The position numbers and the translations under genes were made by a program. The notes under the pieces were generated by a model. It made no database searches, was not told the DNA's origin, and saw nothing but the letters and a program-made list of their open reading frames with translations. Shown here piece after piece: positions 1-33,267 of a stretch of 64,000 bases of DNA. Every line of letters starts with the position of its first letter. Position 1 is the first letter of the stretch. The stretch comes from Candidatus Beckwithbacteria bacterium GW2011_GWC1_49_16. Its GTDB lineage: Bacteria; Patescibacteriota; Microgenomatia; UBA1400; CG1-02-47-37. The stretch lies in assembly GCA_001029675.1 (NCBI GenBank), contig CP011210.1, positions 128,193 through 192,192 of the forward strand. Reading direction: 5' to 3'.

Positions 1-1
1 C

Positions 2-949
2 CAGCGGGACACCAAGATTGCCTCCCGGAGATTGCCGGATTTGTCGGTGAGTTTGGGACCTTATAACCTAACCAAGCCGATTATCGCCTCGCCGATGGAC
101 ACGATTACCGGAGAAAAAATGGTCAGGCTGATGCATGAGATGGGAGCGATTGCCGTTTTGCCGCGGGGGGATTTAACCAGAAACGGTAAGCTGTGCCGCA
201 AGTTTACCCGGGCAAAAATCCGCTGTATTTACGCCATTGGTTTGAAAAACGCCCTGGAAGAGGCCAAGGCTTACAAAAAGTGGGGGGCCAAGGTGATTTT
301 GATCGACGTGGCCCACGGCGGCATGAGCCAAGTAGTCAAGGCGGCCAAAGAGATTGGCGAAAGACTGAAGCTGACGGTGATGGCGGGCAACATCGCCTCG
401 TTTTCCCAGGCCCAGGAATATAAAAAGGCGGGCCTAAAAATTGCCCGGGTGGGAGTGGGTTGCGGCGGTTTGTGTATTACCCGGTTGGTGGCCGGAGCGG
501 GAGTGCCGCAGCTGTCGGCGATTTTTGATACTAGTGCAAGCGGGTTGCAGATTGTCGCCGATGGGGGCATCAGGCGGCCGGCAGATTTTGCCAAAGCCAT
601 TGCTGCCGGGGCGGATTTGGTAATGATCGGTTCGATGTTGGCCGGAACGGATGAGACACCGGGCAAGGTGATCGGCGGCAGGAAAGAGGTCCGCGGCCAG
701 GCGTCGGAGGCCTATATGAAAGATAACGACGTCGAGCTGGGTGAGTTTCGGGCGGCCGAGGGCATCAGTACCATGGTCAAGGTCAAAGGCTCGGCCCGTC
801 ACGTGATCAATGATTTGGCGGCGGGACTAAGAAGCGCCATGAGCTACACCGGAGCTAAAACAATCCGCGAGTTTCAGCAAAAAGCCGAGTTTGTGCTGGT
901 GACCAAGTCGGCCCAAATCGAAAACCAGCCGCATATTTTAAGCCTCTAA
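2..949 (+). CDS. IMP dehydrogenase/GMP reductase family protein (GuaC-like), 5' partial at window edge
   Basis: The frame is open from nt 2. The protein aligns to GuaC from about residue 45 (PIIASPMDT, IDVAHG, GVGCGGLCITR with the catalytic Cys, IVADGGIR, GADLVMIGSMLAG). There are no CBS domains. Confidence 0.7.
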   Translation, partial: QRDTKIASRRLPDLSVSLGPYNLTKPIIASPMDTITGEKMVRLMHEMGAIAVLPRGDLTRNGKLCRKFTRAKIRCIYAIGLKNALEEAKAYKKWGAKVILIDVAHGGMSQVVKAAKEIGERLKLTVMAGNIASFSQAQEYKKAGLKIARVGVGCGGLCITRLVAGAGVPQLSAIFDTSASGLQIVADGGIRRPADFAKAIAAGADLVMIGSMLAGTDETPGKVIGGRKEVRGQASEAYMKDNDVELGEFRAAEGISTMVKVKGSARHVINDLAAGLRSAMSYTGAKTIREFQQKAEFVLVTKSAQIENQPHILSL

Positions 950-973
950 GAAGCAGCTGCTAGCTCCTAGGTT

Positions 974-1501
974 CTAAGGGTTAGGTAGATTATTACTAGT
1001 TTCAGAATAGAAGGATAGATTTCTAGCAATGGTGGCTCTTGTTTCTCTGCGTACTTCCGCGTTTGTTAAAGGACGCCCCATGGATTCAGCCATTTCTTTT
1101 CGCATTGTAAAACTATAATCCATGGCGTTTTTGTTTAGCGGAATATCGAGTCTCATGATTTTGTCTAATAAAGGTTCTTTGTCCGTTTCTTGAACATTTG
1201 GGAGCAGTAAACAAATTTTAAAGCTAATTTTACCGTGCATACTATTAACGGGAATGGTTTCTAGCGATGAATCAGGCACGATTGTCTTTACGGTCTCTAT
1301 AAATCTAGAAAAATTTCCTTCTTCAACCAATGCCCAATAAATTTCTGTTTGAAAGTTGTAATCTCTAAGGACATTTTTGGCTTCGTTAAATAATTTTAGT
1401 TCCTTTTCTGCTTTGGGTGGGTAGTGAAATTTAATTTCTAATACCTTTCCCATGCTGTTGGTGTCGCCACGAATTAGAGTTAACAAGGCGTGATTGTTCA
1501 T
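974..1501 (-). CDS. hypothetical protein in an AT-rich island
   Basis: A 175-aa ORF fills the interval. GC is clearly lower than in the neighbouring genes. No motif was recognised. Confidence 0.45.
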   Translation of the reverse strand: MNNHALLTLIRGDTNSMGKVLEIKFHYPPKAEKELKLFNEAKNVLRDYNFQTEIYWALVEEGNFSRFIETVKTIVPDSSLETIPVNSMHGKISFKICLLLPNVQETDKEPLLDKIMRLDIPLNKNAMDYSFTMRKEMAESMGRPLTNAEVRRETRATIARNLSFYSETSNNLPNP

Positions 1502-1561
1502 GTTGGGCGATTATACAGTAAACAGAGTTAAACCACTATAGGTTAGACTGTGAGCTGAGGG

Positions 1562-1828
1562 TTATTTGAATTTTTGTTCCAGGCGGGAGAGTTGGAGGGT
1601 AACCAGAACGGCCAGGGCGGTGACTAAAACTGCGTAGATGATAAGAGAAATTAAGCCCGAGCCTTGGCCGATTAAAGGTTTGATGTAGGTGTCGACGGTT
1701 TCTTTGATGACATTGTTCCAGGCAAGCGCGGCGACTAAACCAAAGCCGGAAGTGGCCAGCGCCGTCATTTGCTTGATGACGCTTTTGGGCAGGTCTTTGG
1801 TGGATTGGGGGGGGTTGATTTTGGTCAT
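1562..1828 (-). CDS. small membrane protein
   Basis: An 88-aa ORF with two hydrophobic helices (GFGLVAALAW, LISLIIYAVLVTALAVLV). Confidence 0.5.
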   Translation of the reverse strand: MTKINPPQSTKDLPKSVIKQMTALATSGFGLVAALAWNNVIKETVDTYIKPLIGQGSGLISLIIYAVLVTALAVLVTLQLSRLEQKFK

Positions 1829-1836
1829 ACATAATT

Positions 1837-2580
1837 TTAGCCGGTTTGGGGTTTGACTTCCAGGAAGGGTTTTTGTGCTTCAGGAATGAGGTCGGGGTTA
1901 ACCGGAAAGTGGATGGTGGCGTAGGGGGGGCGGGGGATTTGGTTGCGGTTAAGGTTTGGAGCCAGCCGGCCTTTGATGGCCAGGCTTTCTCGGCCCTGAC
2001 CGCCGTCGTCGCAGCCGTAGCCGTGGATCCAGATAGACGGATGAAAGGAAAACATGGCCCGGCCGTGGGCAAGACCGGGAAGGTTGATCTTGCCGCCCGG
2101 GGTTTTTGAGGCCAGGGCGTAGACGTAAAACTTGGGGTAGGGCAGTTTAGTCTTTCGGGAGCGGTTTAAAGCGTCAAACTGGTTTTTGATGGTGCTGATG
2201 GCGCAGTTTAAGGTGTTTTGAGTGTCGACTACGGCCTCGGTGAAAACAACGGGCAGGACCCGGCCGGACTTTTTGATGATGAAATCCAGGTGGGGAGGGT
2301 AGAGGCAGGCAGGTTTACTCCGGCGGCGGTTTTGTTCGTCGTAGTAGCTGATGCGCATCGGGTTGACCCGGACCGGGCCGGCCAGGGCTAAAATGGCCCC
2401 TAGCTGGTTGCCGCCTTTGGCGATGGGAACGACGGAAACGCGGTTGTCGGGAAAGAGGTGCTTGAATTCGGCGGTTAAAGAGGCCAGAGCCTGGAGGCAA
2501 AGGCTGGAGGGGATCAAAGTAATGGCGGTGTCAAAAGAAGTGGCGGCAGCAATGGGGTTTTTGAGTTGGGCCATCGGCAT
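1837..2580 (-). CDS. phosphoribosyltransferase-like protein (HPRT-like fold, degenerate PRPP motif)
   Basis: VVPIAKGGNQLG, ISYYDE and VLPVVFTEAVVDTQNTL resemble the HPRT motifs VLKGG, SSY and VLIVEDIIDTGLTL. The acidic PRPP-binding residues are substituted. A C-terminal extension is present. Confidence 0.4.
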   Translation of the reverse strand: MPMAQLKNPIAAATSFDTAITLIPSSLCLQALASLTAEFKHLFPDNRVSVVPIAKGGNQLGAILALAGPVRVNPMRISYYDEQNRRRSKPACLYPPHLDFIIKKSGRVLPVVFTEAVVDTQNTLNCAISTIKNQFDALNRSRKTKLPYPKFYVYALASKTPGGKINLPGLAHGRAMFSFHPSIWIHGYGCDDGGQGRESLAIKGRLAPNLNRNQIPRPPYATIHFPVNPDLIPEAQKPFLEVKPQTG

Positions 2581-2649
2581 TATTGTAGCATTAAAACTGA
2601 CGCTTGTTTTTTACCGCAAAAGGTGCGAGAATTAGTGCGGAAAATCAAC

Positions 2650-3723
2650 ATGTATCAGCCAAAATTTACCATTAGCAACGAAATTTTAAAATATATCGGG
2701 GAGATTGGCGGAGCCAAAGAGGTAATTGATTATGCAGTGATGGTGCCGGCGTGGGAGGCGAAATTTAAAGAGGAGGCGATGGTGCGGACGGTCCATTTTG
2801 GCACCAAGATTGAAGGGAACGAACTGAATTTTTCTCAAACAGAGAGGGTAATGAAAGGTGAAGAGGTCATCGCCCGGGAAAGAGACATTCAGGAAGTTTT
2901 AAACTATAGAAACGTGATGGAATATATCGACCGATTGGGGGAGAGGTTCGGCGAGAAGGGGCCGGGCGGGTCAGCAGCCAGCTATTCCGAAGGCTGGCTC
3001 CAAAAAATCCACCAGTTGACCACCGAGAAGATTTTAGAGAAAGGTAGAGCCGGGGAGTATCGAACCAGTCGGGTGGTGGTAAAAAACAGCGCCACGGGCG
3101 AGGTGAGTTTCCGGCCGCCTTTGCCGGTGGAAGTCGAGGTGCAACTAGCCGAATTTTTTGAGTGGCTCAACAGCGACGAGGGGAAAAAGCTTCATCCGGT
3201 TTTGCGAGCCGGGATAACCCATTATGAGCTGGTGCGGATTCATCCCTTTGTGGACGGCAATGGCCGGGTGGCCAGAGCTTTTGCTCTTTTAGTTTTGTTT
3301 CGCGAAGGCTATGATGTGAAGCGGTTTTTCTCGATCGAGGAGTATTTTGACAAGAATGCCCCAGCGTATTACCAGGCGCTTCAGGCGGTGTCGCAGGCTC
3401 GCGGGGACTTGACCTTCTGGCTGGAGTTTTTTACCAAAGCTTTGGCGATTGAACTAACTAAAATTAAAGACAGGGTCAGGAGCTTGTCGATTGACTTTAA
3501 GTGGCGGGACAGGTTGGGCCGGCAGATTGCGCTTTCGGCGCGGCAGATTAAACTGATGGAAATGTTGACCGACAAAGACAAGCTTTTTATGAGGGAAGCC
3601 AGAGAGAAGTTTGCCGACGTGTCTGATGATACTATTTTGCGGGACATTAAAGATTTGATGGACAAGGGGATTTTGAAGAAGAAAGGCAGCACCAAGGCAG
3701 CGTATTACATGATGCGAAATTAA
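2650..3723 (+). CDS. Fic family protein with a C-terminal winged-HTH domain
   Basis: Fic motif HPFVDGNGRVARAF. The C-terminal helix-turn-helix region reads ILRDIKDLMDKGILKKKGSTKAAYY. The start was trimmed to Met29 (MYQPKF) to avoid overlap with the upstream gene on the opposite strand. Confidence 0.8.
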   Translation: MYQPKFTISNEILKYIGEIGGAKEVIDYAVMVPAWEAKFKEEAMVRTVHFGTKIEGNELNFSQTERVMKGEEVIARERDIQEVLNYRNVMEYIDRLGERFGEKGPGGSAASYSEGWLQKIHQLTTEKILEKGRAGEYRTSRVVVKNSATGEVSFRPPLPVEVEVQLAEFFEWLNSDEGKKLHPVLRAGITHYELVRIHPFVDGNGRVARAFALLVLFREGYDVKRFFSIEEYFDKNAPAYYQALQAVSQARGDLTFWLEFFTKALAIELTKIKDRVRSLSIDFKWRDRLGRQIALSARQIKLMEMLTDKDKLFMREAREKFADVSDDTILRDIKDLMDKGILKKKGSTKAAYYMMRN

Positions 3724-3726
3724 TTT

Positions 3727-5523
3727 ATGAAGTTCAAGCGCTTTGCCGAGTATTTAGAGAGAATTGAGCAAACGCCGTCGCGGCTTAAAATGACTTCAGT
3801 TTTGGCCGAGCTTTTTGGAGAGGCGACGGCTGACGAGATCGACCAAATGGTTTATTTGGCTTTGGGGAGATTACGGCCTAAGTACGAGAGTGTTGAGTTT
3901 AACCTGGCAGAAAAAATGATGTTTAGAGTGATGGCCGAGGCGTACCAGGTTGAGCCGGCAAAAGTAAAGCAAGCGTTCAAAAAGACTGGTGATTTAGGCG
4001 GGGCGGTGGAGGAGTTGCCCCACTTCGCCAAAGCTTCGAGGGGTACAGCTAAAGATTTATCGGTGGCAGAGGTGTACCAGCGGCTGATGGATGTAGCGGC
4101 GGACGAGGGGGTGGGTAGCCAGGAAAGAAAAGTTAACCATATGGCTAATTTGATCCGCGACCTTGACAGCCTGTCGGCAAAGTATGTGTTGCGGATTCCG
4201 GTAAAAAAGTTGAGGTTGGGGTTTTCGGACATGACGGTTTTGGATGGATTATCCTGGATGGAGGCAGGCGACAAGAGTTTGCGGCCTCAACTGGAGCGGG
4301 CTTTTAACGTGTCGGCCGATATCGGCGGCATTGCGGAGAGGTTTAAAAAAGGCGGTCTGGCCGGGGTGGCGGGGGTCAAGGTAAAGGTGGCGGTGCCGAT
4401 CAGAACGGCGCAGGCGGAAAGGCTGCCGAATGAGAAAGCGGTGGTGGAGAAACTCAAAGTGTTTGCGGTGGAGGGCAAATACGACGGTTTGAGGGTGCAA
4501 ATCCATGTCGATAAATCTCCAGACTCAAAGCGCAAGATTCAAAGTGATTTGTTCGGTGAGTCAAAAAAATTTGTGGAGATATTTTCTCGCAATCTGGACA
4601 ACATGACGCATATGTTCCCCGACATCGTGGCGGCGGCCGACAAACTAAAAGTTAAAACGGCGATTTTGGACGGGGAAGCGGTTGCGTTTGAGCCTAAAAC
4701 CGGCAAGTCTTTACCTTTTCAGGAAACGGTGACCAGAAAAAGAAAACACGGAGTCAAAAATAAGGCAAAAGAGATGCCGCTAAAGGTGATTATCTATGAT
4801 TTACTATATCTTAACGGTACAACATTGATCGAGAAACCGTTTAAGGAGAGAAGAAAGCAGCTGGAAAAAGTCTTGGGTAGGAATGGAAAAACCGACGGAC
4901 TGGAGCTGGCAGAGCAAGAAATTGTCAGCGAGCCGGAGAGGTTAAACCAGCTTTTAAAAAAATACCTTAAGGAAGGGTTAGAGGGAGTGATGTGTAAGAA
5001 GTTAACCACGGCTTATCAGGCCGGAGCCAGAAATTTTAACTGGGTGAAGCTGAAAAAAACTTCCCAAAAGGAATTGGCCGACACCATCGATTGCGTGGTG
5101 ATGGGCTATTATGCCGGCCGGGGCAAGAGGAGCGGGTTTGGTATCGGGGCGTTTTTGGTCGGTGTTACCCACAAATCCGAAGCACGAAGTACGAAATCCG
5201 AAATCGGGGTTGGGTCGGTGGCCAAAATTGGTACAGGCTTGACCGACGAGCAGTGGCGGGAGATCCGCCGGCGGGCGGACAAATTGAAAGTTAAGGCTAA
5301 ACCGGAGGAGTATGTGGTGGACAAGAATTTGGCGCCCGACGTTTGGGTGAGGCCAGAGATGGTGGTAGAGATTTTGGCGGATGAAATAACTCGCAGCCCG
5401 ATTCACGCTTTTGGCTTGGCTTTGCGTTTCCCGCGGCTTATTAGTTTTCGTGACGACAAGGATGTTGGCCAGGCGACGACAAAGCGCGAGCTTGAGCGGC
5501 TGTTTAAGCTGCAGCGGGGTTAG
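3727..5523 (+). CDS. lig: ATP-dependent DNA ligase (archaeal/eukaryotic type)
   Basis: Adenylation motif EGKYDGLRVQIH (KxDG). Length is 598 aa. The C-terminal OB-domain region reads VVEILADEITRSP. Confidence 0.9.
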   Translation: MKFKRFAEYLERIEQTPSRLKMTSVLAELFGEATADEIDQMVYLALGRLRPKYESVEFNLAEKMMFRVMAEAYQVEPAKVKQAFKKTGDLGGAVEELPHFAKASRGTAKDLSVAEVYQRLMDVAADEGVGSQERKVNHMANLIRDLDSLSAKYVLRIPVKKLRLGFSDMTVLDGLSWMEAGDKSLRPQLERAFNVSADIGGIAERFKKGGLAGVAGVKVKVAVPIRTAQAERLPNEKAVVEKLKVFAVEGKYDGLRVQIHVDKSPDSKRKIQSDLFGESKKFVEIFSRNLDNMTHMFPDIVAAADKLKVKTAILDGEAVAFEPKTGKSLPFQETVTRKRKHGVKNKAKEMPLKVIIYDLLYLNGTTLIEKPFKERRKQLEKVLGRNGKTDGLELAEQEIVSEPERLNQLLKKYLKEGLEGVMCKKLTTAYQAGARNFNWVKLKKTSQKELADTIDCVVMGYYAGRGKRSGFGIGAFLVGVTHKSEARSTKSEIGVGSVAKIGTGLTDEQWREIRRRADKLKVKAKPEEYVVDKNLAPDVWVRPEMVVEILADEITRSPIHAFGLALRFPRLISFRDDKDVGQATTKRELERLFKLQRG

Positions 5524-5557
5524 GGTTTTTTCTTAAAAAGTAGGGTAAAATATATCT

Positions 5558-5791
5558 ATGGTTTCAGCTTTACCCAAATTTCTCCATAAATATTTTTGGG
5601 GCGATCGGTTAAGCGAGCTTAATTTGAAAGATCACCGGCGCTACATTATCCAGACAATTTTGGAAAAAGGTGATCGCCGGGCGGCCTCGTGGCTAATAAA
5701 AAAAGTTGGCAAAAAAACCCTGAAAAACAACTTGCCGGTTTTGTCTTTAAGCCCTAAAGCCTTTAATTTCTGGCGGCTGTACTTGTCATGA
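5558..5791 (+). CDS. small protein, possible partner (antitoxin-like) of the downstream nucleotidyltransferase
   Basis: A 77-aa ORF overlaps the downstream gene by 4 nt (ATGA), consistent with translational coupling. No motif was recognised. Confidence 0.35.
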   Translation: MVSALPKFLHKYFWGDRLSELNLKDHRRYIIQTILEKGDRRAASWLIKKVGKKTLKNNLPVLSLSPKAFNFWRLYLS

Positions 5792-6423
5792 GCCAGAAAT
5801 TCTTCATTGATTCCCTGCCGCCTTTTACAGTTAAACTTTTAGCCTTGTTTCAGAAAGATAAATCGTCTTTTTTACCAGATTTTTATCTAACCGGAGGGAC
5901 GGCGCTTTCGTTACTTTTAGGTCACCGGGAGTCGGAAGATTTAGACTGGTTTAGCCCTAAAAATTTTGACCCGGTCAAACTTCAGTCGCAACTTTTAAAG
6001 CTCGGCAACTTATCCCGGGTGGAGTTGGAAGAAAATACTCTAAACGCTTATTTAAATGAAGTCAAAGTTCAATTTTTGGGTTATCCGTATCCCTTGTTGG
6101 GATCGCTAGCGACTTGGGGGAATATTAAAATCAGCTCTTTGCTGGACATCGCCTGTACTAAGGTGTTAACGATCGGAGTGAGGGGGAGTAAGAAAGACTT
6201 TGTTGACCTGTATTTTTTGTTAAAACAATTTTCTTTGGAAGAGTTATTTACTGCTTTAGCCAAAAAATACCGCCGGGTCGATTACAACCAGCCGCATATT
6301 TTGAAGGCTTTAGTGTATTTTGTTAATGCCGACAGTCAACCAATGCCCCGGATGCATCAACAAATCGATTGGGCAAAAATCAAGAAAGAAATAATTGGAA
6401 AAGTGAAAGCGATAAAACTTTAA
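5788..6423 (+). CDS. AbiEii/DUF1814-like nucleotidyltransferase (type IV toxin-like)
   Basis: YLTGGTALSLLLGHRESEDLDWF matches the Gly-rich GGTAL NTP-binding loop plus the acidic DxD motif typical of AbiEii-family nucleotidyltransferases. Confidence 0.55.
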   Translation: MSQKFFIDSLPPFTVKLLALFQKDKSSFLPDFYLTGGTALSLLLGHRESEDLDWFSPKNFDPVKLQSQLLKLGNLSRVELEENTLNAYLNEVKVQFLGYPYPLLGSLATWGNIKISSLLDIACTKVLTIGVRGSKKDFVDLYFLLKQFSLEELFTALAKKYRRVDYNQPHILKALVYFVNADSQPMPRMHQQIDWAKIKKEIIGKVKAIKL

Positions 6424-6480
6424 ACAGGCGCGAGCTTGAGGGATTATTTAAGCTGCAGCGGGGAAGTTGATTGAAATTAG

Positions 6481-7080
6481 TTACTGTCGTTCAATGCTGG
6501 ATGTTGTGTGGCCATCGAGACGATCAATATATTTTCCTGGATCACTTTTCTCCATATAGTTTAACCCCCGGATAAGGGAACCTTCAATTTTTGGTTCTAG
6601 ATAGCGATGCCTTCTTATAAGCTGGGCTATTTGCATGGGGTTAAATTCTCCAGTCACATATAGTCCTGTAATAAGAAAGTTTATAGCTGTGGCGTTATCC
6701 ATATTCTCGAGCGGTTCAGCCTTTATAAGCTCAGGACAGAAGACTCGGAGGTTATTTTTAATTCCTAAATGATTTAATGTTTCTAAAACTAAAGCTTTTG
6801 GATCTTGAGCCCATTCTGATTTAGTGAAAAACGCAACCCCGTCGATATCTGAATGTGGAGTAGCTACTCCTAAGGCAAATGACCCTACGACAACAATGGA
6901 AAGTTTATGTTCTCCCAAGGCCTGTTGAAGAGATTGAGTTATGTTACTAAGCCGCGCCTCGCTTTGTTGGCTGATTGAGGCATAGCTAGGGTAAGATTTA
7001 AGTTGGGAAAGGATAGTGGCGCGTTGCTGTTCAAAGCTGGCGCGCCATAATCTTATACCTCGTGGTGAAAACATACTCAT
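6481..7080 (-). CDS. nucleotidyltransferase domain protein (pol-beta-like minimal NTase with a helical C-terminal domain)
   Basis: GSFALGVATPHSDIDGVAFF is a GS...DxD pol-beta NTase motif. The start was trimmed to MSMFSPRG at 7080 to remove the overlap with the cofE-like gene. Confidence 0.6.
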   Translation of the reverse strand: MSMFSPRGIRLWRASFEQQRATILSQLKSYPSYASISQQSEARLSNITQSLQQALGEHKLSIVVVGSFALGVATPHSDIDGVAFFTKSEWAQDPKALVLETLNHLGIKNNLRVFCPELIKAEPLENMDNATAINFLITGLYVTGEFNPMQIAQLIRRHRYLEPKIEGSLIRGLNYMEKSDPGKYIDRLDGHTTSSIERQ

Positions 7081-7150
7081 TGTGAGAATTAAATTAAAAC
7101 AACGGCGAGAATTATACCACATTATTATAGGTTTGTTTACTTGTATAGGA

Positions 7151-7888
7151 CTAGGGTGAGGAATTAAGGGTTTTTTTGAAGACTTTAAGAAGCGGAGCGT
7201 AGAGGTCGGATTTGCCTTGGGGAATTTTGAGTTCAGAGAGGGTGGATTTGCTGGTGAAACGGATTTTGTCAAGGCCGCGGACAATCAAAAGTGGGGTTTG
7301 TTCGTTACCTTCGCCCATGATGACACCGCCGAAAGCGGCCAGGGCGTCGACGAGATTTGAGTTGGCCTCGACGATTTTGCGGCCGAAGATGTCCGGCTGG
7401 CCGACATAGGAATAGTTAGGATGAAAACCCCAGAAGCCGACGGAGATGCCCATATGGCCCCAGCGAAGCGGCAAACAAAAAGAGTCGGTGACGACGACGC
7501 CGAGGTTTTTTAAACGATACTTATTTCTAAGATGGGTCCAGATTTTTTTGGCAAACAGGTGGGGTTTTTGGGGTAATAAGATGTAGTGGTTTTTACCATT
7601 GGACCGGTCGACGCCGGCGTAAGGGGTTAAAGTTAAGTCCTTGACGGCCAGGCCGTGGGGGGTTTGGGGCAGCCAGCCGTCGGCCTCTTTTTTGATGAGG
7701 CGGATTTTATCTTTAAGAGTCATGTCGGGGGTGATTTTGACGCAGCGACCCTGATGGATGGAGACGAGCTTGGAGGTAATCAAAACCAAGTCTTTTTCTT
7801 TTAAGGCGGGGAGAGACTGGTCAAGGAGGCCAAAGAGATCGTCTTTTGGCGGCAGGAATTTTCTGGTTTTGACCGGAATAAAGTCCAT
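7151..7888 (-). CDS. CofE-like (F420-0:gamma-glutamyl ligase family) protein
   Basis: Block-wise similarity to CofE: ITSKLVSIHQGRCVKI, AGVDRSNG, LGVVVTDSFCLPLRWGHMGISVGFWG, VIMGEGNEQTPLLIVRGLD. Confidence 0.75.
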   Translation of the reverse strand: MDFIPVKTRKFLPPKDDLFGLLDQSLPALKEKDLVLITSKLVSIHQGRCVKITPDMTLKDKIRLIKKEADGWLPQTPHGLAVKDLTLTPYAGVDRSNGKNHYILLPQKPHLFAKKIWTHLRNKYRLKNLGVVVTDSFCLPLRWGHMGISVGFWGFHPNYSYVGQPDIFGRKIVEANSNLVDALAAFGGVIMGEGNEQTPLLIVRGLDKIRFTSKSTLSELKIPQGKSDLYAPLLKVFKKTLNSSP

Positions 7889-7905
7889 GAGTTAGGATAT
7901 TATAA

Positions 7906-10452
7906 ATGATAGACGTGGGTTTGAGTCAAAAAGAAGCAGAAAAAAGGTTAAGCCAGTTTGGCTGGAACGAGATTGCCAGGAAAAAAAGAGTCAGCGATCT
8001 GCAGTTGTTGTTAGCTCAAGTTAAATCGCCCCTGATTTATGTGTTGTTGGCGGCGATGGGCATTACCGGGGTGGTTTTACATGATGTGGAAGACACCATC
8101 GTCATTGGCCTGGCAGTGGTGTTTAACACTTTTTTGGGCTTTATCCAGGAAAGAAAAGCCAATCGGTCGCTGGAGGCTTTGGCGGCGGTGTTGACCCTTC
8201 ACGCCAAAGTGAAGAGAGACGGTAAGTGGGTGGAAATTGAAGCCAGAAAAGTAGTGCCGGGAGACGTGTTGCGGCTGGAGTTGGGTTCCAGAGTGGCGGC
8301 AGACGGAGAGGTGACGACGGCGGACTCGTTGTCGATTAATGAGGCGGTGCTGACGGGTGAGTCGGCGGCGGTGACAAAAAACAAAAAAGACAAGGCGTTC
8401 ATGGGCACGACGGTGGCCGGAGGCATCGGCGAGATGGTGGTGACCAAGACGGGGGAGAAAACCGAGTTTGGCAAAATCGCCGAGAGCCTGCAAGAAACCA
8501 AAAGCGAAGCGACTCCGCTGCAGGCCCAAATCAACCGCTTCGCTAAAACCATGGCGGTGGCGGTGTTTATCGTTTCTTTAATGGTACTGGCGGTGGGACT
8601 TTTTGTCGGAGACAGTTTCAGAGAGATTTTTCCGACAGCGGTGGCTTTGGCGGTGGCGGCTATTCCCGAAGGCTTGGCGGTATCGCTGACGGTGATTTTG
8701 GCCATAGGCATGCAGCGGATTTTAAAGAAAAAAGCTTTGGTGCGGAAACTGGTGGCGGCAGAAACTCTGGGCGGGGTGACGGTAGTTTGCGCCGACAAAA
8801 CCGGCACTCTGACCGAAGGCAAAATGCGGGTGGTTGATGTTTTGGAGAGTATTAGTCCGGACAAGAAAAGGCGGGAGATGAAGCGGGCGATGATGCTGAA
8901 AGCGGTGGTTTTGTGCAATGACATGCGGGACCCTTTGGAAGTAGCCATGATGGATTGGGCCCTTAAACAGCAATCTCACCTCCGAGGTGAAAATACCCAC
9001 GCCTCGGAGGTGTCTGGGTTTTTAGAGAAACAGTATCCGCGGCTGGACGAGATACCGTTTGACCCGAAACACCGTTATATTGCCACCTTACATAAAGTGA
9101 TCACTCCCGGAGTGTCTAGAGTAAAACACTCCGGGAGTGGAGAAACTCAAAGGTTGTTGCTGGTCGGTGGGGCGCCGGAAGAGGTCTTGGCGCGATGCGA
9201 CACCACCGAAGCCAGAAGAAAAGAGTGGCTGGAGAAAATCAACCGCGAAGGCAGACAGGGCCACCGCTTGGTAGGTTTTGCTTACCGGGAAGTAGGGGCG
9301 GATAAAAAAAACTTGGCCGATAAAGACATTAAGCAGCTGATGTGGTTGGGCAGTTTGGTGTTTGAAGATCCGATAAGAAAAGGAGTAAAGGAGTCGTTAA
9401 AAGAAGTAGCCGCGGCCGGAATTAAGGTTAAGGTAGTCACCGGCGATTACGCGCCGACGGCCGAAGCGGTGATGAAGGCTTTGGGGCTAATCGGAAGTAA
9501 AGAAGAGGGGGTAGTCATGGAAGGGAGCGAGTTAAAAAAACTGACGGATGAGGCGCTGAAGAAAAGGCTGTCGCAGGTGAAGTTGTTTGCCAGGACCACA
9601 CCGGATCAGAAGTTGAAAATCGTGGAGGTGTTACAGGGGATGGGCGAGGTGGTGGCGATGACCGGCGATGGGGTCAACGACGCGCCGGCTTTGAAAAAAG
9701 CCGATATCGGCATAGTGGTGGAGACGGCCTCGGATGTGTCCAAAGAAACGGCTGATATGGTGTTGCTCGACAGCAACTTTAAAACCATTTTGGCGGCGAT
9801 TGAGGGCGGACGGATGATTAAAGACAACTTGCGTAAAGTGATTTTGTATTTACTCGCCGATAGTTTTGGGGAGATTGTTTTGGTGGTGATGAGCCTAGTT
9901 GCTGGCATGCCTTTGCCGATAACGGCGGCGATGATTTTGTGGGTTAACTTGGTGTCGGACGGGTTTCCGGATTTGGCCTTAACAGTGGATCCGGCCGAGA
10001 AAGGTTTGTTAAAAAGGCAGCCGGAAAGCCGGCAGAGGCATTTAATTGACGCCGAGATGGCCTTGCTGATTGTTTTGATCTCGTTGGCTTCGGCGCTGAC
10101 GGCCTTTGGGGCATTTTGGTATTACTGGCATAATCCGGCTTATGGTTTGGAGCACGCCAGAACGGTGGCTTTTAACCTTTTGGGGCTAAACTCATTGTTT
10201 TACGTCTGGTCGGCCAGAAGCCTAAAGCAGCCGGTGTGGAAAGAAAGTTTATTTGAAAACCCATGGCTGGTGGTGGCGGTGCTTTTGGGGCTGGGGCTGC
10301 AGATGGTCGGAGTTTATTCCCGGGTAGGGCAAAGGTTGTTGGAGACGGTGGCGCTTGACGCTTCCGAGTGGTTGGTGGTGGTTGCCGGGAGTCTGCTGAT
10401 GATGGTAATAGTAGAAGGAGTTAAGTTCGCCTTTAACAGGCGAGAGAGGTAG
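7906..10452 (+). CDS. P-type cation-transporting ATPase (Ca2+/P2-type)
   Basis: Phosphorylation motif CADKTGTLT and hinge motif TGDGVNDAPALKKADIGI. There are 8-10 TM segments. It carries two in-frame palindromic insertions (see findings). Confidence 0.9.
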   Translation: MIDVGLSQKEAEKRLSQFGWNEIARKKRVSDLQLLLAQVKSPLIYVLLAAMGITGVVLHDVEDTIVIGLAVVFNTFLGFIQERKANRSLEALAAVLTLHAKVKRDGKWVEIEARKVVPGDVLRLELGSRVAADGEVTTADSLSINEAVLTGESAAVTKNKKDKAFMGTTVAGGIGEMVVTKTGEKTEFGKIAESLQETKSEATPLQAQINRFAKTMAVAVFIVSLMVLAVGLFVGDSFREIFPTAVALAVAAIPEGLAVSLTVILAIGMQRILKKKALVRKLVAAETLGGVTVVCADKTGTLTEGKMRVVDVLESISPDKKRREMKRAMMLKAVVLCNDMRDPLEVAMMDWALKQQSHLRGENTHASEVSGFLEKQYPRLDEIPFDPKHRYIATLHKVITPGVSRVKHSGSGETQRLLLVGGAPEEVLARCDTTEARRKEWLEKINREGRQGHRLVGFAYREVGADKKNLADKDIKQLMWLGSLVFEDPIRKGVKESLKEVAAAGIKVKVVTGDYAPTAEAVMKALGLIGSKEEGVVMEGSELKKLTDEALKKRLSQVKLFARTTPDQKLKIVEVLQGMGEVVAMTGDGVNDAPALKKADIGIVVETASDVSKETADMVLLDSNFKTILAAIEGGRMIKDNLRKVILYLLADSFGEIVLVVMSLVAGMPLPITAAMILWVNLVSDGFPDLALTVDPAEKGLLKRQPESRQRHLIDAEMALLIVLISLASALTAFGAFWYYWHNPAYGLEHARTVAFNLLGLNSLFYVWSARSLKQPVWKESLFENPWLVVAVLLGLGLQMVGVYSRVGQRLLETVALDASEWLVVVAGSLLMMVIVEGVKFAFNRRER
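8977..9012. repeat. palindromic element, variant B (CACCTCCGAGGTG / CCTCGGAGGTG) inside the P-type ATPase CDS
   Basis: Inverted 13-nt arms are separated by a 10-nt A-rich spacer. The element is translated in frame as HLRGENTHASEV. Confidence 0.7.
9102..9139. repeat. palindromic element, variant A (CACTCCCGGAGTG / CACTCCGGGAGTG) inside the P-type ATPase CDS
   Basis: Perfect reverse-complementary 13-nt arms with a 12-nt spacer. Translated in frame as TPGVSRVKHSGS. Confidence 0.75.
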
Positions 10453-10456
10453 TTTT

Positions 10457-11425
10457 ATGATTTGGCTGCAATTGTTGCTACTGACTGGTTTTTCTTTTTT
10501 ACTCATTAAAGCGACGGACATTGTCAGCGAAAGTTTGCAGCAGCTATCCAGACTGACCCGGATAGGCAAGTTTGCCATGACGTCGTTTTTGTTAACGTTG
10601 GCCACTTCGGCCCCCGAACTGGTAGTGGGCGTGGCGGCGGCCCTGGAAGGAACGCCGAACCTGGCTTTGGGGACGGTGGTGGGCAGCAACATTGCCAACG
10701 TTTCCCTGGTGATCGGCCTGGCGGCGGTAATCGGCGGCAGTTTTTCGGTGGTGGGGGAGTTTTTGAAAGTGGACATTTTTTCGGTTTTTCTGGCAGGAGT
10801 AATGCCTTTGATGTTGCTTTTGGACGGCAGGCTTTCAAGGGTGGACGGGTTGATTTTACTGCTGGTTTACGGCGCTTATAACTTTGGCTTGTTGAATAAA
10901 TATAATACCAGCCCTCCGACCAGGGGGGGGCGGCTTTTAAGCCGGATGTTTAACGGCAACAATCGCGGTAAAATGAGCCGTTGGCTGGCTTGGTTGTTTT
11001 TGGGCGGCGCCATGCTGGTGTTTGCCGCCGACATGATCGTAAATGTGGGCGCGGAATTGGCGACGGGGCTGGGGGTGCCGGTGTTTTTGATCGGTCTTTT
11101 TTTCGTGGCCATTGGTACCAGTTTACCGGAGTTGGCCTTTCAAAGCCGGGCGGTGAGAAAGGGCCAGGTGGCCATGGCCTTGGGAAATTTAATGGGCAGC
11201 GTGGTGGCTAACTCCACCTTGATTTTAGGGATAGTCAGTTTGATCAGGCCGGTGGTGCTGTACAAGGGTCTTAATGCCTATTTGCTGGCGGCGGCGGCCT
11301 TCGGGGTGATTTTTATGCTTTTCTGGTATTTGGTGAAGACCAAGAAAAAACTCGAGCGCTGGGAAGGAGCGGTACTTTTATTGGCTTACGCAGTCTTTAT
11401 GTGGTTGGAGTGGCTGGGGAAGTAA
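10457..11425 (+). CDS. Na+/Ca2+ exchanger (CaCA family, YrbG-like)
   Basis: Two alpha-repeat signatures, ATSAPELVVG and GTSLPELAFQ, in a 322-aa polytopic membrane protein. Confidence 0.85.
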   Translation: MIWLQLLLLTGFSFLLIKATDIVSESLQQLSRLTRIGKFAMTSFLLTLATSAPELVVGVAAALEGTPNLALGTVVGSNIANVSLVIGLAAVIGGSFSVVGEFLKVDIFSVFLAGVMPLMLLLDGRLSRVDGLILLLVYGAYNFGLLNKYNTSPPTRGGRLLSRMFNGNNRGKMSRWLAWLFLGGAMLVFAADMIVNVGAELATGLGVPVFLIGLFFVAIGTSLPELAFQSRAVRKGQVAMALGNLMGSVVANSTLILGIVSLIRPVVLYKGLNAYLLAAAAFGVIFMLFWYLVKTKKKLERWEGAVLLLAYAVFMWLEWLGK

Positions 11426-11445
11426 TGGTGTTACAATAGGTTTGA

Positions 11446-12795
11446 ATGAACATAATTGCCGACTTACAACTGCACAGTAAATACTCGCGGGCGGTAAGCA
11501 AAGACATGGTGATCCCGATTTTGAGCCAGTGGGGTGAGAAAAAGGGGATAGATTTACTGGCCACGGGCGACTGGACGCACCCTTTGTGGCTTAAGGAACT
11601 TGAGGCAAATTTGGAGGAGGCGGGAGAGGGAATTTACAAACTCAAAGGCAGCGAGAAAAAAACCCGGTTTTTGCTGTCCGGGGAAATATCTTCGATCTAC
11701 ACCCAGGGTGGGCAGGGGCGGAGGGTGCACACTTTGTTTTTTGCCCCGTCTTTGGCTGTTGTGGCCAAGATTAACCAGGAGTTGACTAAAAGGGGAGCTA
11801 ATTTGATGAGTGACGGGCGACCGATCGTGGGGCTTTCTTGCCAAGATCTTTGCGAAGTGGTTTGGGGAGTGGACGAGCGGGTGTTGGTGATACCGGCTCA
11901 CGCGTTCACCCCGTGGTTTGCCCTGTATGGCTCAAAGTCCGGTTTTGATTCGATTGATGAATGTTTTGGGGAATATGCCGATAAAATCTATGCTATCGAG
12001 ACAGGACTTAGTTCGGATCCGGCGATGAACTGGCAGATTGCGGATTTGGATCGGCGGGCGATTGTCAGTTTTTCTGACGCTCACAGCCCGAGGAAGCTGG
12101 GGCGCGAAGCGACGGTGTTTGAGTTTGAGGGTAAGGAAAGTGAAGACTACGGCTTCGACGATGTAGCTTGGGCGATTAAGGAGAGGTATTTAGGAGAAAA
12201 TTCAGGCAGGATGAAGATTTTGTACACCATCGAATTTCACCCGGAAGAAGGTAAATACCATTACACCGGTCATAGAAAGTGTAACGTGGTCCAGTCGCCC
12301 CAGGAAACGAGGGAAAAAGGGACGACTTGCCACGTTTGCGGCCGGTCGTTGACGGTCGGGGTGATGCATCGAGTGGAGGAGTTGGCTAAAGATAGGCCAG
12401 AGATTGAGCCGAAAAAGAAAGAAGGCAAGACCGGAGTGGTGGGTTACTGGCATCCTGAAGACGAAACCCGGCCGCCTTACGTGATGCTGGTGCCTTTGCA
12501 CGAAATTTTGGCCGAAGCCTTGGGAGTGGGAGAGTCGAGTCAGAAGGTTGGGGGAGTTTATGAGCTGTTGGTGGGTAAATTCGGCGGCGAGTTTGAGGTG
12601 CTACTTAAAGCCGAAACCAGCCAGATTGGTAAAGTGGCCGGTTCACGGGTGGCCGAGGCAGTAGACAGGGTGAGGCGGGGGGAGATAGAAGTCAAGCCTG
12701 GCTATGACGGGGTGTTTGGGGAGGTGTCGATCTGGGCCTCCGACGCATTAGCTTCTGAGGTTAAACCCGCAGAGCAGCCGGATTTGTTTTCTTGA
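11446..12795 (+). CDS. endoQ: endonuclease Q (PHP-domain, zinc-finger deaminated-base endonuclease)
   Basis: Close block similarity to Pyrococcus EndoQ: DLQLHSKYSRAVSKDM, TGDWTHPLWLKEL, RRVHTLFFAP, IPAHAFTPWFALY, SFSDAHSPRKLGREATVFEF, zinc finger CHVCGRS, RPPYVMLVPLHEILA. Confidence 0.8.
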   Translation: MNIIADLQLHSKYSRAVSKDMVIPILSQWGEKKGIDLLATGDWTHPLWLKELEANLEEAGEGIYKLKGSEKKTRFLLSGEISSIYTQGGQGRRVHTLFFAPSLAVVAKINQELTKRGANLMSDGRPIVGLSCQDLCEVVWGVDERVLVIPAHAFTPWFALYGSKSGFDSIDECFGEYADKIYAIETGLSSDPAMNWQIADLDRRAIVSFSDAHSPRKLGREATVFEFEGKESEDYGFDDVAWAIKERYLGENSGRMKILYTIEFHPEEGKYHYTGHRKCNVVQSPQETREKGTTCHVCGRSLTVGVMHRVEELAKDRPEIEPKKKEGKTGVVGYWHPEDETRPPYVMLVPLHEILAEALGVGESSQKVGGVYELLVGKFGGEFEVLLKAETSQIGKVAGSRVAEAVDRVRRGEIEVKPGYDGVFGEVSIWASDALASEVKPAEQPDLFS

Positions 12796-25480: not shown

Positions 25481-25885
25481 TTATTTCGAATCTTTAATCT
25501 TTGGAAAAGCCATAGAAGCTAGAATTGCACTAATGGTTCCGACTGCAACGTCTCCTAAAAATTCTGGATTTGGTTTTGATAAGTTTTCAACTAAGACATT
25601 AATTAAAGTTACAGAAACAACAGTTAAGGCGTTCCGCTGCGAGTTGGTAAGCCTAAACATTTCTGTTGACTCTATAGGAGTTGATATAATTTCTAGAGAG
25701 GTTATTAAGAATCTGTTTAGATGAAAGAGTGCTTGAGATGCGTTAAAGTTGCCAATGTGATTTTCTAAAAATGTTCCTTGACCAAGAATGTATGGATCAA
25801 TTCTTTTAGCAAAATTCATGGCTACGCCAGCAGTTATACCAATGAAGCCAACTGTTTTTGTTAGAGATCTTTCTGTTTGCGGCAT
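25481..25885 (-). CDS. hypothetical protein, AT-rich
   Basis: A 134-aa ORF. Weak. Confidence 0.35.
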   Translation of the reverse strand: MPQTERSLTKTVGFIGITAGVAMNFAKRIDPYILGQGTFLENHIGNFNASQALFHLNRFLITSLEIISTPIESTEMFRLTNSQRNALTVVSVTLINVLVENLSKPNPEFLGDVAVGTISAILASMAFPKIKDSK

Positions 25886-28979: not shown

Positions 28980-29053
28980 GGGCGCTTAGCTCAGTTGGTT
29001 AGAGCGCAGTCCTGATAAGACTGAGGTCCATGGTTCGAGTCCATGAGCGCCCA
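28980..29053 (+). tRNA. tRNA-Ile (anticodon GAT)
   Basis: Cloverleaf with acceptor GGGCGCT/AGCGCCC, anticodon loop CCTGATAAG, T-arm GGTTCGAGTCC. Confidence 0.9.
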
Positions 29054-29091
29054 CAATTTATTTATTCCGTTTGTTAAGATAAAATGTTGCT

Positions 29092-29970
29092 ATGGGTTCT
29101 CAACCTGGTTTACACGAGGTTCCGGCAAGCGAAGAGCTTTCTAAATATGAGAAAAGTGATGTTGTTGCCAAGGTAATTGACTGTATTGATCGTAAACTGG
29201 ATGAGGGACAGACTTCCACTATTTTGCTAACTGGCGGTCCGGGAGTGGGTAAATCAACGGCTTCTTATGAAGTGCTTGATTACTTAAAACTAGAAAGAGG
29301 CTTAGAGTCAGTGTGGATACAAGCTCCCGACATCGGCAGTGAAAAGACAAGAGATAGAATAATCCATATGGGCAACGACAAAGTCTTATTTATAGATTCA
29401 GTTGATAATTTATTTCCTTCTTCTAAAGACCCCGATGAGGTGGCTGAAACAGTGAAGCTATTAAAAGATTTAGCCCAAAAAGGAGAGGGTCCAATAGTTA
29501 TAGCTAACATCCATGATCCCTATTTAGTTAAAAGAGAGATTAAAACAACCCATCTTCCTTTAAGAGACCAAATACTAGGTGATACAGGCTTGTTTTCTGA
29601 TACAAAACAACATTTTGTCGTTGAAGATCGGTTTGTTAATGAAAAAGCCATGAGCGTGGCGGTAAAAAGACTGATAGGTCAGGCTGATATTCACGCGAGT
29701 TGGGCTACCTTTATTCAGCTTGAACTTGAAAAACACGAAGTTAATAAACATAGCGAAACAACCTTTGCATTGTCTTTACTAAAGAAAGATTCTATGCCAG
29801 GGAGTTTGAAGAAATCTTATGTTTTAGGCAGTGAAGATGAGGTCAGGACTTGGTTTAACGATGCTATTGAAGATGCTAGAAAGGTGGGAGAAGAATTTTA
29901 TCGGGCTTATTATGAGCCAGACAGCGAAAGTGAGGCTTTCAAGGGACTAGTGCGATTTGATGTAAGCTAG
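29092..29970 (+). CDS. P-loop NTPase (AAA-like) encoded inside the 16S-23S spacer
   Basis: Walker A LLTGGPGVGKST and Walker B KVLFIDSVD. The gene is AT-rich. It is flanked by a duplicated tRNA-Ile 3' end. Confidence 0.55.
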   Translation: MGSQPGLHEVPASEELSKYEKSDVVAKVIDCIDRKLDEGQTSTILLTGGPGVGKSTASYEVLDYLKLERGLESVWIQAPDIGSEKTRDRIIHMGNDKVLFIDSVDNLFPSSKDPDEVAETVKLLKDLAQKGEGPIVIANIHDPYLVKREIKTTHLPLRDQILGDTGLFSDTKQHFVVEDRFVNEKAMSVAVKRLIGQADIHASWATFIQLELEKHEVNKHSETTFALSLLKKDSMPGSLKKSYVLGSEDEVRTWFNDAIEDARKVGEEFYRAYYEPDSESEAFKGLVRFDVS

Positions 29971-29973
29971 GAT

Positions 29974-29998
29974 CTGGTTCGAGTCCATGAGCGCCCAC
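29974..29998 (+). repeat. direct repeat: second copy of the tRNA-Ile 3' end (TGGTTCGAGTCCATGAGCGCCCAC)
   Basis: 24-nt identity with 29030-29054, immediately after the stop codon of the inserted ORF. Confidence 0.85.
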
Positions 29999-30416: not shown

Positions 30417-30929
30417 GTGAAGAGAATACCGATCTTTATAGCCAAATATTTTGGTCTATTTGAATTAAAGCAGTCGGTGGATGCCTTGGATGTATTAGCC
30501 GAAGAAGGACGTGCCAGGCCACGATAGGCGTCGGGGAGCTGCCAAGAAGCTGTGATCCGGCGGTGTCCGAATGGGAAAACCTCCTCATTAGTAATAGTGG
30601 GGGCCCCGACAGCGCAAGCTTGTCGGGGGGGGAACCCGGGGAACTGAAATATCTAAGTACCCGGAGGAAAAGAAATTAAATAAGATGCCGTCAGTAGCGA
30701 CGAGCGAAAGCGGTCTAGTCCAAACTCCGACATTACGTCGGAGGGTTGTAGGGCTCCAATATGGGACTACGAGAGATAGTCGAACAACTCGGAATAGTTG
30801 GCCAAAGAAAGTGAAAGCCTTGTAGATGAAATTTTGAGTAGCTCTAGGAGATTCCTGAGTACCACGAGAGACGGCAAACTCTTGTGGGAAGCCGGGGCGA
30901 CCACGCTCCAAGACTAAATACTAATACAT

Positions 30930-30970
<41 letters not shown>

Positions 30971-32456: not shown

Positions 32457-33119
32457 AGAATCGCTGCCTTTGTAAAATTTTGCTATATGCTGGAAACTCC
32501 GAGAATCTTGAACTACTGCCTGTTTATGTGTAATACTACACATAATGGGAAGTAAAAAAGTTACAAGTGCGGACAATCAGCAGGAAAGGCTAAAAACGAT
32601 TGGTTGGATAGTTGGTTTCACAGATGGTGATGGTTGTTTTTGTATTTCGATAAACAAAAACCACAGATTAAAACTTGGTTGGCAAGTGGTTCCTGAGTTT
32701 GTAATAACTCAAGGAGAGAAAAGCCTAGAGAGCTTAAAACTTGTTAAAAAGTTTTTTAAATGTGGAAGAATCTTTATTAATCGAAGACATGACAACCATA
32801 AGGAAGACCTTCATAGATATTGCGTGAGAAGTATAGCTGACTTAGAAGAAAAGATAATTCCTTTCTTTGAGAAAAATCAGTTAAAAACCTACAAAAGAAA
32901 ATCATTTGAGACTTGGAGTAAAGCAGTGAAGTTGATGATAAACAAAAGACTTCATTTAAGTATGAAAGGGATTAGAAAGTTAGCAGAAATGTCAGCGGAG
33001 ATAAACCAACAGAAACGACCAAAGTTTTTAGAATCCTCAGAGACTATACGCAGAAGTCCCGCTAAGCGGGATAAGATATAGTCCGATCTCATAAGCGATT
33101 ATGAGTTAACATTATTAAG
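32457..33119 (+). mobile_element. group I intron in 23S rRNA (helix 69/71 region, E. coli ~1931 site)
   Basis: Exon 1 ends ...AGTCCAAAGGT and exon 2 resumes AGCGAAGTACCTTGTCGGGTAAGTTCCGAC. The insert ends in G. It contains a LAGLIDADG ORF. Confidence 0.65.
32545..33081 (+). CDS. LAGLIDADG homing endonuclease, intron-encoded
   Basis: LAGLIDADG motif GFTDGDGCF. 178 aa, AT-rich, located inside the 23S intron. Confidence 0.85.
   Translation: MGSKKVTSADNQQERLKTIGWIVGFTDGDGCFCISINKNHRLKLGWQVVPEFVITQGEKSLESLKLVKKFFKCGRIFINRRHDNHKEDLHRYCVRSIADLEEKIIPFFEKNQLKTYKRKSFETWSKAVKLMINKRLHLSMKGIRKLAEMSAEINQQKRPKFLESSETIRRSPAKRDKI

Positions 33120-33236: not shown

Positions 33237-33267
<31 letters not shown>

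Follow-up and report, generated by a model that had tools for sequence, protein, structure and literature searches.

The window analysed here, a 64,000-nt stretch of the genome of Candidatus Beckwithbacteria bacterium GW2011_GWC1_49_16 (contig CP011210.1), contains an ATP-dependent DNA ligase gene (lig) whose last codons are found a second time downstream, behind two small open reading frames (ORFs), ORF77 and ORF211, named after the length of their products. The locus raises the question of how the end of this gene came to be duplicated, and whether the genes enclosed between the two copies arrived in the same event. The evidence reported below indicates that the segment between the copies is probably a horizontally acquired, non-autonomous mini-cassette, inserted at the end of lig. 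Comparison with related genomes provided the main new result, namely that the ligase 3' end is a recurrent insertion site in Microgenomates.

A repeat search identified a single pair of 36-nt direct repeats, GCGCGAGCTTGAGCGGCTGTTTAAGCTGCAGCGGGG (copy 1) and GCGCGAGCTTGAGGGATTATTTAAGCTGCAGCGGGG (copy 2), spaced by 944 nt and identical at 32 of 36 positions (89%). The two copies are the only matches to the 36-mer in the window, none was found in 100 shuffles, and between 2e-6 and 6e-4 occurrences with at least 32 identities out of 36 would be expected by chance over the whole window. The mismatches, at positions 14, 16, 17 and 19 (C/G, G/A, C/T and G/A), are confined to a 6-nt span (p = 0.005), which reads CGGCTG in copy 1 and GGATTA in copy 2, and is flanked by identical blocks of 13 and 16 bases. 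Copy 1 encodes the ligase end RELERLFKLQRG and is followed by GGT-TAG, with the stop codon TAG at 5521-5523; copy 2, read in frame, gives RELEGLFKLQRGS and runs on to S-TGA, with the stop at 6468-6470, so that the final codon and the stop differ between the two. The GGATTA hexamer of copy 2 is made up of AT-rich, cassette-like codons and specifies Gly where all relatives have Arg or Lys; it resembles the AGATTA found in lower-GC relatives, such as locus L015. The same arrangement is found, identical, in 12 independent contigs of this species, obtained from several samples, and the ligase protein is identical to AKM78918.1 of Candidatus Beckwithbacteria GW2011_GWB1_47_15. Both the repeat of the ligase end, with differences at its centre only, and the two ORFs between the copies, overlapping by 4 nt (ATGA), had been described in an initial annotation of this sequence; the former was borne out by the repeat search and the shuffles, and the latter are as described.

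The composition of the ligase gene is host-like up to its stop codon, with a GC content of 0.55 over the last 400 nt. In a 200-nt sliding window, GC falls from 0.55 to about 0.41 near 5520, sharply and at the lig stop, and recovers at about 7200. Relative to its flanks, where GC is 0.50 and GC skew +0.28, the segment between the repeats is low in both (Table 1). The initial annotation had placed the foreign DNA between the repeats; this held for the composition of that segment and failed for its extent, because the low-GC island passes beyond copy 2, which sits inside it, and through a second nucleotidyltransferase gene to about 7150, next to a F420-ligase-like gene (7151-7888, minus strand). 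As a general property of the window, GC skew is unusually strong and positive on the plus strand nearly everywhere (about +0.2 to +0.35), independently of the coding strand, with a GC of 0.50, and recently acquired genes are marked by low skew and low GC (for example 974-1501, 5524-7150, 25481-25885 and 29067-29974).

Table 1. Features of the lig region of the window and of ligase loci carrying displaced copies of the ligase end
Feature	Position	Strand	Evidence or remark
ATP-dependent DNA ligase gene (lig), 598 aa, target gene	3727-5523	+	Pfam DNA_ligase_A_N/M/C, NCBIfam TIGR00574
Repeat copy 1 (attL-like)	5484-5519	+	last 12 sense codons of lig
Putative inserted cassette between repeats, 904 nt	5524-6427	+	GC 0.40, GC skew +0.07
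Compositionally atypical island, lig to F420-ligase-like gene	5524-7150		200-nt sliding composition
TAAAAT, -10-like hexamer	5546-5551	+	6 nt before ORF77 ATG, read from sequence
ORF77, 77-aa DUF6922 protein, candidate antitoxin or regulator	5558-5791	+	Pfam PF21956
ORF211, 211-aa DUF1814 (AbiEii/MenT-fold) nucleotidyltransferase, candidate toxin	5788-6423	+	Pfam PF08843
Repeat copy 2 (attR-like)	6428-6463	+	ligase-end fragment, begins 4 nt past nucleotidyltransferase stop
Second nucleotidyltransferase-like gene, 199 or 213 aa by start chosen	6481-7080/7122	-	Pfam NTP_transf_2, E 1.7e-6
L014, BrnT/BrnA pair after lig			perfect 44-nt ligase-end copy (44/44)
L015, BrnT/BrnA pair after lig			degenerate remnant LKELEKLYKMQK
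L062, AAA_14/DUF4143 ATPase after lig			remnant ASRKELEKFL, 3 nt past cargo stop
L039, ~55-nt hairpin, then 278-aa ORF of unknown type			three ligase ends in series
L042, gene-less ~55-nt hairpin only, ligase end replaced			one displaced copy

These features can be accommodated by a single Campbell-type crossover across the stretch of about 36 bp at the very end of lig. In this scheme the incoming DNA would have borne its own copy of the last ligase codons beside the cargo, slightly diverged from the resident one, and a crossover within one of the identical blocks would leave 13 and 16 identical bases around a divergent hexamer. After the crossover, one copy would complete lig with a new final codon and stop, and the other, keeping the old stop, would be left behind the cargo, giving the attL/attR layout of integrative elements located at gene 3' ends. 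A presumed circular form would have carried the target 3'-end copy between the cargo stop and the cargo promoter, as AAACTTTAAACAG-36-mer-TTAGGGTTTTTT, and the reaction might be catalysed in trans by a site-specific recombinase, or be carried out by host recombination. Between the repeats only the DUF6922 and DUF1814 genes are found, and no integrase, relaxase or transfer genes; given that it carries no recombinase, the element may have been moved in trans, or may be a decayed relic similar to cis-mobilizable elements (CIMEs).

The regions downstream of lig were compared in 81 species-level Microgenomates ligase loci, by searching each relative's own ligase end downstream of the gene. Synteny is conserved, in the order Fic, lig, variable segment, F420-ligase-like gene, ATPase, Na/Ca exchanger and MJ0043, and lig is followed by up to 2.5 kb of DNA, or by none at all (L018), with cargo that differs or is absent. 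The ligase 3' end is duplicated downstream in 6 of the 81 loci, window included; a scan at the protein level detected 6 extra ligase-end copies, all downstream and on the ligase strand, as opposed to one weak match on the other strand. Duplications of a relative's own ligase end around other cargo are what is expected from insertion accompanied by regeneration of the ligase C-terminus. This process, proposed in the initial annotation, is supported by these independent duplications, by the foreign composition of the segment and by the ligase alleles found at L042 and L014. The identity of ligase ends across relatives is only mildly raised (0.88, vs 0.74-0.83 in other blocks), and hyper-conservation as the signature of an attachment (att) site was accordingly rejected.

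The origin of the copies can be read from the two loci just mentioned. In L042 the displaced copy, flank included, hardly differs from the intact ligase end, and the DNA flanking it, in the cassette-free loci L030 and L068; divergence is found in the copy joined to the ligase. The L014 copy, followed further to the left, reads DDKNISEGTSKK, the allele type of other Beckwithbacteria, whereas L014's own ligase reads DDKKIEQGTSKK; the copy therefore derives from another ligase allele, and not from a duplication in place. Both cases show that the insert brought a foreign ligase end with it, displacing the resident end downstream; a duplication in place followed by drift predicts the opposite. Locus L014 contains, in addition, a class-I glutamine amidotransferase ORF (2589-3188, within the segment 2437-3270) downstream of the ligase-end copy. 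The protein terminates in VDRDYRKMAIG, a copy of the BrnA C-terminus (VDQDYRRMAIG), both ending at a stop codon; TAATACTTCAGGGTTTA is found at 2569-2585 and again at about 3193-3209, and a 22-nt perfect inverted repeat lies at about 3196-3269. These features suggest that insertions are nested here, each accompanied by its own gene-end duplication.

A control scan for duplicated gene ends was performed over 928 ORFs. The 3' end of a Fic gene is duplicated in L066 (6783-7466, 46/47 nt, with BrnT/BrnA cargo), that of an aldolase-like gene in L025 (16095-17400, 29/29 nt, with a 132-aa membrane-like ORF as cargo), and those of a 227-aa ORF in L038 (13909-15960, 50 nt at 88%, the cargo comprising a TrmB-like regulator and a 120-aa ORF) and of a 151-aa ORF in L022 (5457-6290, 41 nt at 88%). 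Within the window, the tRNA-Ile gene of the rRNA operon (28980-29054) is followed by the gene for a 292-aa AAA/STAND-like NTPase (29092-29970, GC 0.40) and by a perfect 24-nt copy of the tRNA 3' end (29975-29998), forming a second recombinase-less, single-gene insert. Occurring also at Fic, aldolase-like and tRNA-Ile ends, the duplicated-end architecture is thus not unique to lig, although lig is enriched for it. The spacing of the tRNA-Ile repeat, 944 nt, equals that of the lig repeat, apparently by coincidence.

The inserts share a regular anatomy. In four cases (the window, L066, L062 and L015), 4 nt or less separate the cargo stop from the displaced copy, and the left end of the inserts supplies the new stop codon of the target gene. 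In L014, L015, L016, L062 and L066 the left end also carries a near-consensus TTGACA-N17-TATAAT promoter, and in L014-L016 the TGA within TTGACA is the ligase stop itself; the window cassette, unlike these promoter-bearing inserts, has only the -10-like hexamer TAAAAT. Because the cargo stops close to the copy, with promoter and stop at the left end, such tight, repeated boundaries fit defined units, and fit random illegitimate joints poorly.

Several results count against the insertion of a defined unit. No cassette-free allele was found in this species: the ...QRGS ending was sought in the ligase 90% cluster, and all full-length members end in ...KLQRG. A crude tyrosine-recombinase motif screen of 230 ORFs, located up to 4 kb downstream of lig in 80 loci, detected no recombinase in any insert, this genome being examined over 64 kb of its 1.05 Mb (6%). 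Three att-like patterns gave no match in viral contigs. The contig L095 (1-2844, JGI 3300009296) shares 100% identity with the window over lig, the DUF6922 gene and the nucleotidyltransferase gene up to about codon 78 of the latter (about 6020 in the window); beyond this point it is about 70% identical up to the nucleotidyltransferase stop, then unrelated, with a 379-aa ORF of unknown type, and it does not contain copy 2. It is either a recombinant, with the breakpoint in the candidate toxin gene, or an assembly chimera. L093 and L094 contain the same cassette family without a flanking duplicated gene end. Finally, no third ligase-end copy is recognisable near 7080-7150; together with the extension of the island past copy 2, this implies that more than one clean event shaped the locus. 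In a collection of metagenome contigs that does not include this organism, the empty-site and occupied-site junction patterns were both found 0 times, although JGI contigs bearing this sequence exist. The duplication as a property of the DUF6922-nucleotidyltransferase cassette itself was rejected, in view of L093 and L094.

Among the other explanations, the one that survives best, though we consider it a good deal less likely than insertion of a unit, requires no mobile unit or att site. It postulates one-sided, homology-facilitated illegitimate recombination with DNA of a relative whose ligase was already followed by the cassette: one end would have recombined by homology inside lig, and the far end would have been attached by an illegitimate joint, some dozens of bases ahead of the resident stop; copy 1 would be the donor's and copy 2 the resident's. 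Both copies do read as in-frame ligase ends with their own stops, the homology between new ligase end and displaced copy at the L042 joint is only about 7 nt (GCTACA), with an insert that resembles a foreign ligase end plus hairpin, and L095, if a recombinant, shows homologous recombination shuffling this locus. The failure to find a recombinase agrees with this scheme, and long duplications would be unstable, so that survivorship could leave only short ones. Random joints, however, do not predict a junction within 4 nt of the cargo stop in four independent cases. The hairpin, moreover, is inserted at one and the same base in L039 and L042. To explain L039, either a later insertion into the displaced copy or a hairpin inserted twice at the same base would be needed, and the AT-rich GGATTA of copy 2, with Gly in place of Arg or Lys, would be odd for a resident functional ligase end.

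A second alternative, to which we assign a low probability, is that the segment never moved as a 0.9-kb unit, and is what remains of a larger element, such as a prophage or an integrative element, that encoded an integrase specific for the ligase 3' end and lost all but its cargo and att sites. This would match the definition of CIMEs and of gene-less microCIMEs, decayed integrative elements found in streptococci at the 3' ends of fda, rpmG, rpsI, rplL and tRNA-Lys (PMC7563491). The extension of the island beyond copy 2 would be explained as well, as would the location of homologous cassettes beside TraC/TraG-like conjugation genes (L096) or within multi-cassette arrays (L093, L097, L099). Against it, none of the 81 ligase loci showed a larger element or an integrase-like ORF at this site, the inserts are uniformly of gene size, with tight boundaries, and repeated decay to exactly promoter, genes and copy would be needed.

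Local duplication, by slippage or by transposon-style target-site duplication, with copies that have since drifted, is very improbable. The perfect or near-perfect copies of L014 (44/44), L066 (46/47), L025 (29/29) and tRNA-Ile (24/24) would agree with it, but in L039 and L042 it is the lig-attached copy that diverges, the displaced one agreeing with orthologues both in its flank and at synonymous positions. The different ligase allele to the left of L014 copy 2 and the four clustered mismatches, unlikely as independent point mutations (p = 0.005), are equally contrary to it. To our knowledge, no transposase makes 24-50-bp duplications of variable length.

The least credible proposal is that the repeat is a functional element, either a Xer/dif-like site made of two binding arms and a variable spacer or the template/variable pair of a diversity-generating retroelement (DGR) directed at the ligase C-terminus. 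Short inverted arms (AGCTTGA...TTAAGCT) do enclose the mismatches, and an Avd-like gene exists elsewhere in the window, but the hairpin is no more stable than shuffles (z = 0.19 and -0.93), the other instances are devoid of such symmetry, and DGR repeats are far longer than this one. A dif/terminus site or structured recombination site was rejected, as GC skew stays positive across the window with no change of sign and the hairpin does not outperform shuffles; a DGR was rejected as well, there being no reverse transcriptase among the ORFs at 1-12000, and only 2 of the 4 differences involving A in copy 2.

Returning to insertion at the lig end as the preferred reading, its closest known kind is the CIME/microCIME class, and the locus does not represent a system of a new kind. 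The insert is bordered by direct repeats that originate from the target gene 3' end, here as in L014, L015, L039, L042 and L062, and the cargo includes no integrase or transfer genes. The hairpin insert of L039 and L042 is comparable to gene-less microCIMEs, 130-220 bp long; tandem accretion, with older units further from the target gene, is seen in L039, and the L025 instance lies at an aldolase-like gene. On the other hand, the ligase site has no known integrase-bearing parent element, the host lineage is Patescibacteria, with no conjugative elements known at this site, and the units, at 0.1-1.2 kb, are smaller and show great regularity, being composed of stop, promoter, one or two genes and copy. 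Genomic islands and prophages located at gene 3' ends also restore their target by element-borne sequence, leaving the original end at the far junction, as exemplified by the tRNA-Ile insert of the window, but they encode their own tyrosine integrase, not seen here, and measure kilobases to tens of kilobases. Integron cassettes are likewise one- or two-gene units, often toxin-antitoxin pairs, arranged in series by a fixed site with the newest nearest; they differ in that no IntI, attI or attC hairpins are found here, the cassettes carry their own promoters, and what is repeated is the end of the host gene next to them.

The cargo was assessed by family models and predicted structures. ORF211 passes the Pfam AbiEii model PF08843 with 59.8 bits (cut-off 22.5, E 5e-16), which, together with matches to the DUF1814 fold, upholds its initial assignment to the AbiEii type. 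It belongs to a family of proteins of roughly 211 aa with more than 3,100 homologues. The AlphaFold 2 (AF2) model, with a predicted local distance difference test (pLDDT) score of 94.4, has the bi-lobed DUF1814 fold: the top Foldseek matches in PDB were JHP933 (4ok0/4o8s, E 5e-6, template modelling (TM) score 0.55), followed by MenT1 (8an5, E 2e-4) and MenT4 (6y56, E 3e-4, TM 0.55). Family members are characterised by pol-beta-type motifs I and II, G[GS]...[ST]xDxD, and by the K and D of motifs III and IV (PMC7450476). All four are found in ORF211, in which S49, D51, D53, K125, D137 and D140, with the motif GGTAL...RESEDLD, are invariant in 33 homologues; the residue correspondence with MenT was judged by eye, without structural superposition. 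On this basis, the S-x-D...K...D pattern appears to parallel the residues needed for toxicity in MenT1 (T39/D41/K137/D152; PMC10435456) and MenT3 (S78/D80/K189/D211; PMC7450476), with a spacing similar to MenT1. Less favourable to this assignment are the coverage of the PF08843 model in two partial stretches and the lack of matches in NCBIfam and in a PDB sequence search; PADLOC AbiEii models match weakly (best E 2.8e-6).

ORF77 had been tentatively taken for an AbiEi antitoxin. This was ruled out, as the protein belongs to DUF6922 (PF21956, E 6.6e-8, 32.3 bits against a cut-off of 27) and gave no AbiEi match in Pfam, NCBIfam or PADLOC. Its AF2 model (pLDDT 86) is all-helical, with five helices. 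It has no PDB fold match with E below 7 and resembles no known antitoxin fold, which weakens the case for an antitoxin; no PDB sequence match and no similarity to the antitoxin MenA1, in sequence or fold, were found either, and no mention of DUF6922 was found in the literature.

A DUF6922 gene, called or detected, lies directly upstream of the nucleotidyltransferase homologue in L093, L094, L095, L097, L099 and L100, for a total of seven contexts including the window. In view of this conserved adjacency, the DUF6922-DUF1814 pair is a conserved operon; with DUF6922 in place of AbiEi, the cassette is not a canonical AbiE system. Boxes comparable to the -10-like hexamer (TATAAT, TGATAAAAT) are aligned upstream of the ORF77-homologous gene in L093 and L094. 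No -35 element was found upstream of ORF77, where a consensus scan detected no plus-strand promoter, and co-transcription of the cassette with lig is therefore possible. The homologues in L093 (2318-5319), L097 (916-4696) and L099 (1570-3800) are part of arrays, together with AAA_14/DUF4143 ATPases and other AbiEii-type pairs; each array unit is preceded by a near-identical promoter-like repeat of about 40 nt (TTGCTT-N17-TAGAAT in L093 and L097, TTGTCT-N17-TATATT in L099).

The MenAT1 system of Mycobacterium tuberculosis combines a short DUF1814 toxin, MenT1, with a 68-aa antitoxin, MenA1 (PMC10435456). The pair described here is similarly composed of a short DUF1814-fold enzyme, preceded in one operon by a small helical protein that is conserved with it and translationally coupled to it; the enzyme matches 8an5/8an4 in fold and keeps the S/T-x-D, K, D active-site pattern. 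Sequence identity is only about 15-18%, however, and DUF6922 has no detectable similarity to MenA1; the pair is MenAT1-like in architecture only. With the AbiE abortive-infection systems (type IV toxin-antitoxin) of Streptococcus agalactiae and Lactococcus the cassette shares a nucleotidyltransferase of the same Pfam family, and RefSeq labels distant plasmid homologues 'AbiEii/AbiGii toxin family'; it differs in having no winged-helix AbiEi (COG5340) partner and a nucleotidyltransferase shorter by about 80 residues, which PADLOC models detect weakly. By analogy with MenT and AbiEii enzymes, ORF211 would add nucleotides to tRNA 3' ends, halting translation, and the co-translated 77-aa protein would restrain it, as MenA1 does MenT1. 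ORF211 and ORF77 may thus be toxin and antitoxin, and the pair would serve as an addiction or phage-defence module.

The nucleotidyltransferase gene downstream of copy 2, already noted on the opposite strand by the initial annotation and confirmed there, is convergent with the cassette and lies in the same island (GC 0.42, skew 0.07). It is a near-orphan: a word-indexed search returned only the protein itself, and four remote relatives (28-39% identity) were found among 1.84 billion representative proteins. The minus strand has a promoter-like site for this gene at 7139-7111, and neither a HEPN gene nor any other partner is found next to it. An ancestral presence at this slot was considered and rejected, the ORF found in the same slot of L013 being unrelated and the gene itself a near-orphan.

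The locus provides a concrete, well-bounded case of a small, host-dependent genome of the Candidate Phyla Radiation that would gain candidate defence or addiction genes while leaving a probably essential lig undisrupted, and it identifies the end of the ATP-dependent ligase gene as a docking site used repeatedly across Microgenomates. The DUF6922-short DUF1814 pair, represented by thousands of metagenomic sequences, is a toxin-antitoxin candidate whose partner protein resembles no known antitoxin fold. In a mini-cassette of this sort, one or two genes may be combined with a stop codon and a promoter, and be completed by a copy, 25-75 nt long, of a host gene 3' end. That Patescibacteria acquire accessory genes largely through such recombinase-less units, restoring host gene ends and stacking serially, is a speculative extension that we hold to be rather doubtful; in that case the ligase 3' end would be a preferred dock, with Fic, aldolase-like and tRNA-Ile ends also used. 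Should the units move by host recombination after DNA uptake, or by a trans-acting enzyme, they would represent integron-like gene capture without an integron. The regular architecture of inserts lacking a recombinase makes the mechanism of mobilisation testable, and is the part most worth following.

A few further observations were made in the window. The Fic-domain gene directly upstream of lig (2566-3723; PADLOC SoFic match, E 9e-52) is syntenic with lig across many Microgenomates; it lies outside the island and looks vertically inherited. A 119-aa 23S_rRNA_IVP / bAvd-like protein is encoded at 51555-51914, near a 2547-aa protein (52307-59950, minus strand) with C-rich low-complexity repeats at about 54.1-55.0 kb, and 37-nt hairpin repeats are located at 44635 and 51174; the region 51555-59950, in which no reverse transcriptase search was made, might be part of a DGR. 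The 23S rRNA gene (30454-34064) spans 3611 nt, vs 2925 nt of the model, and contains a LAGLIDADG homing-endonuclease ORF (32545-33081, Pfam E 3e-23) and two perfect 27-nt palindromic repeats, at 30604-30630 and 31661-31687.

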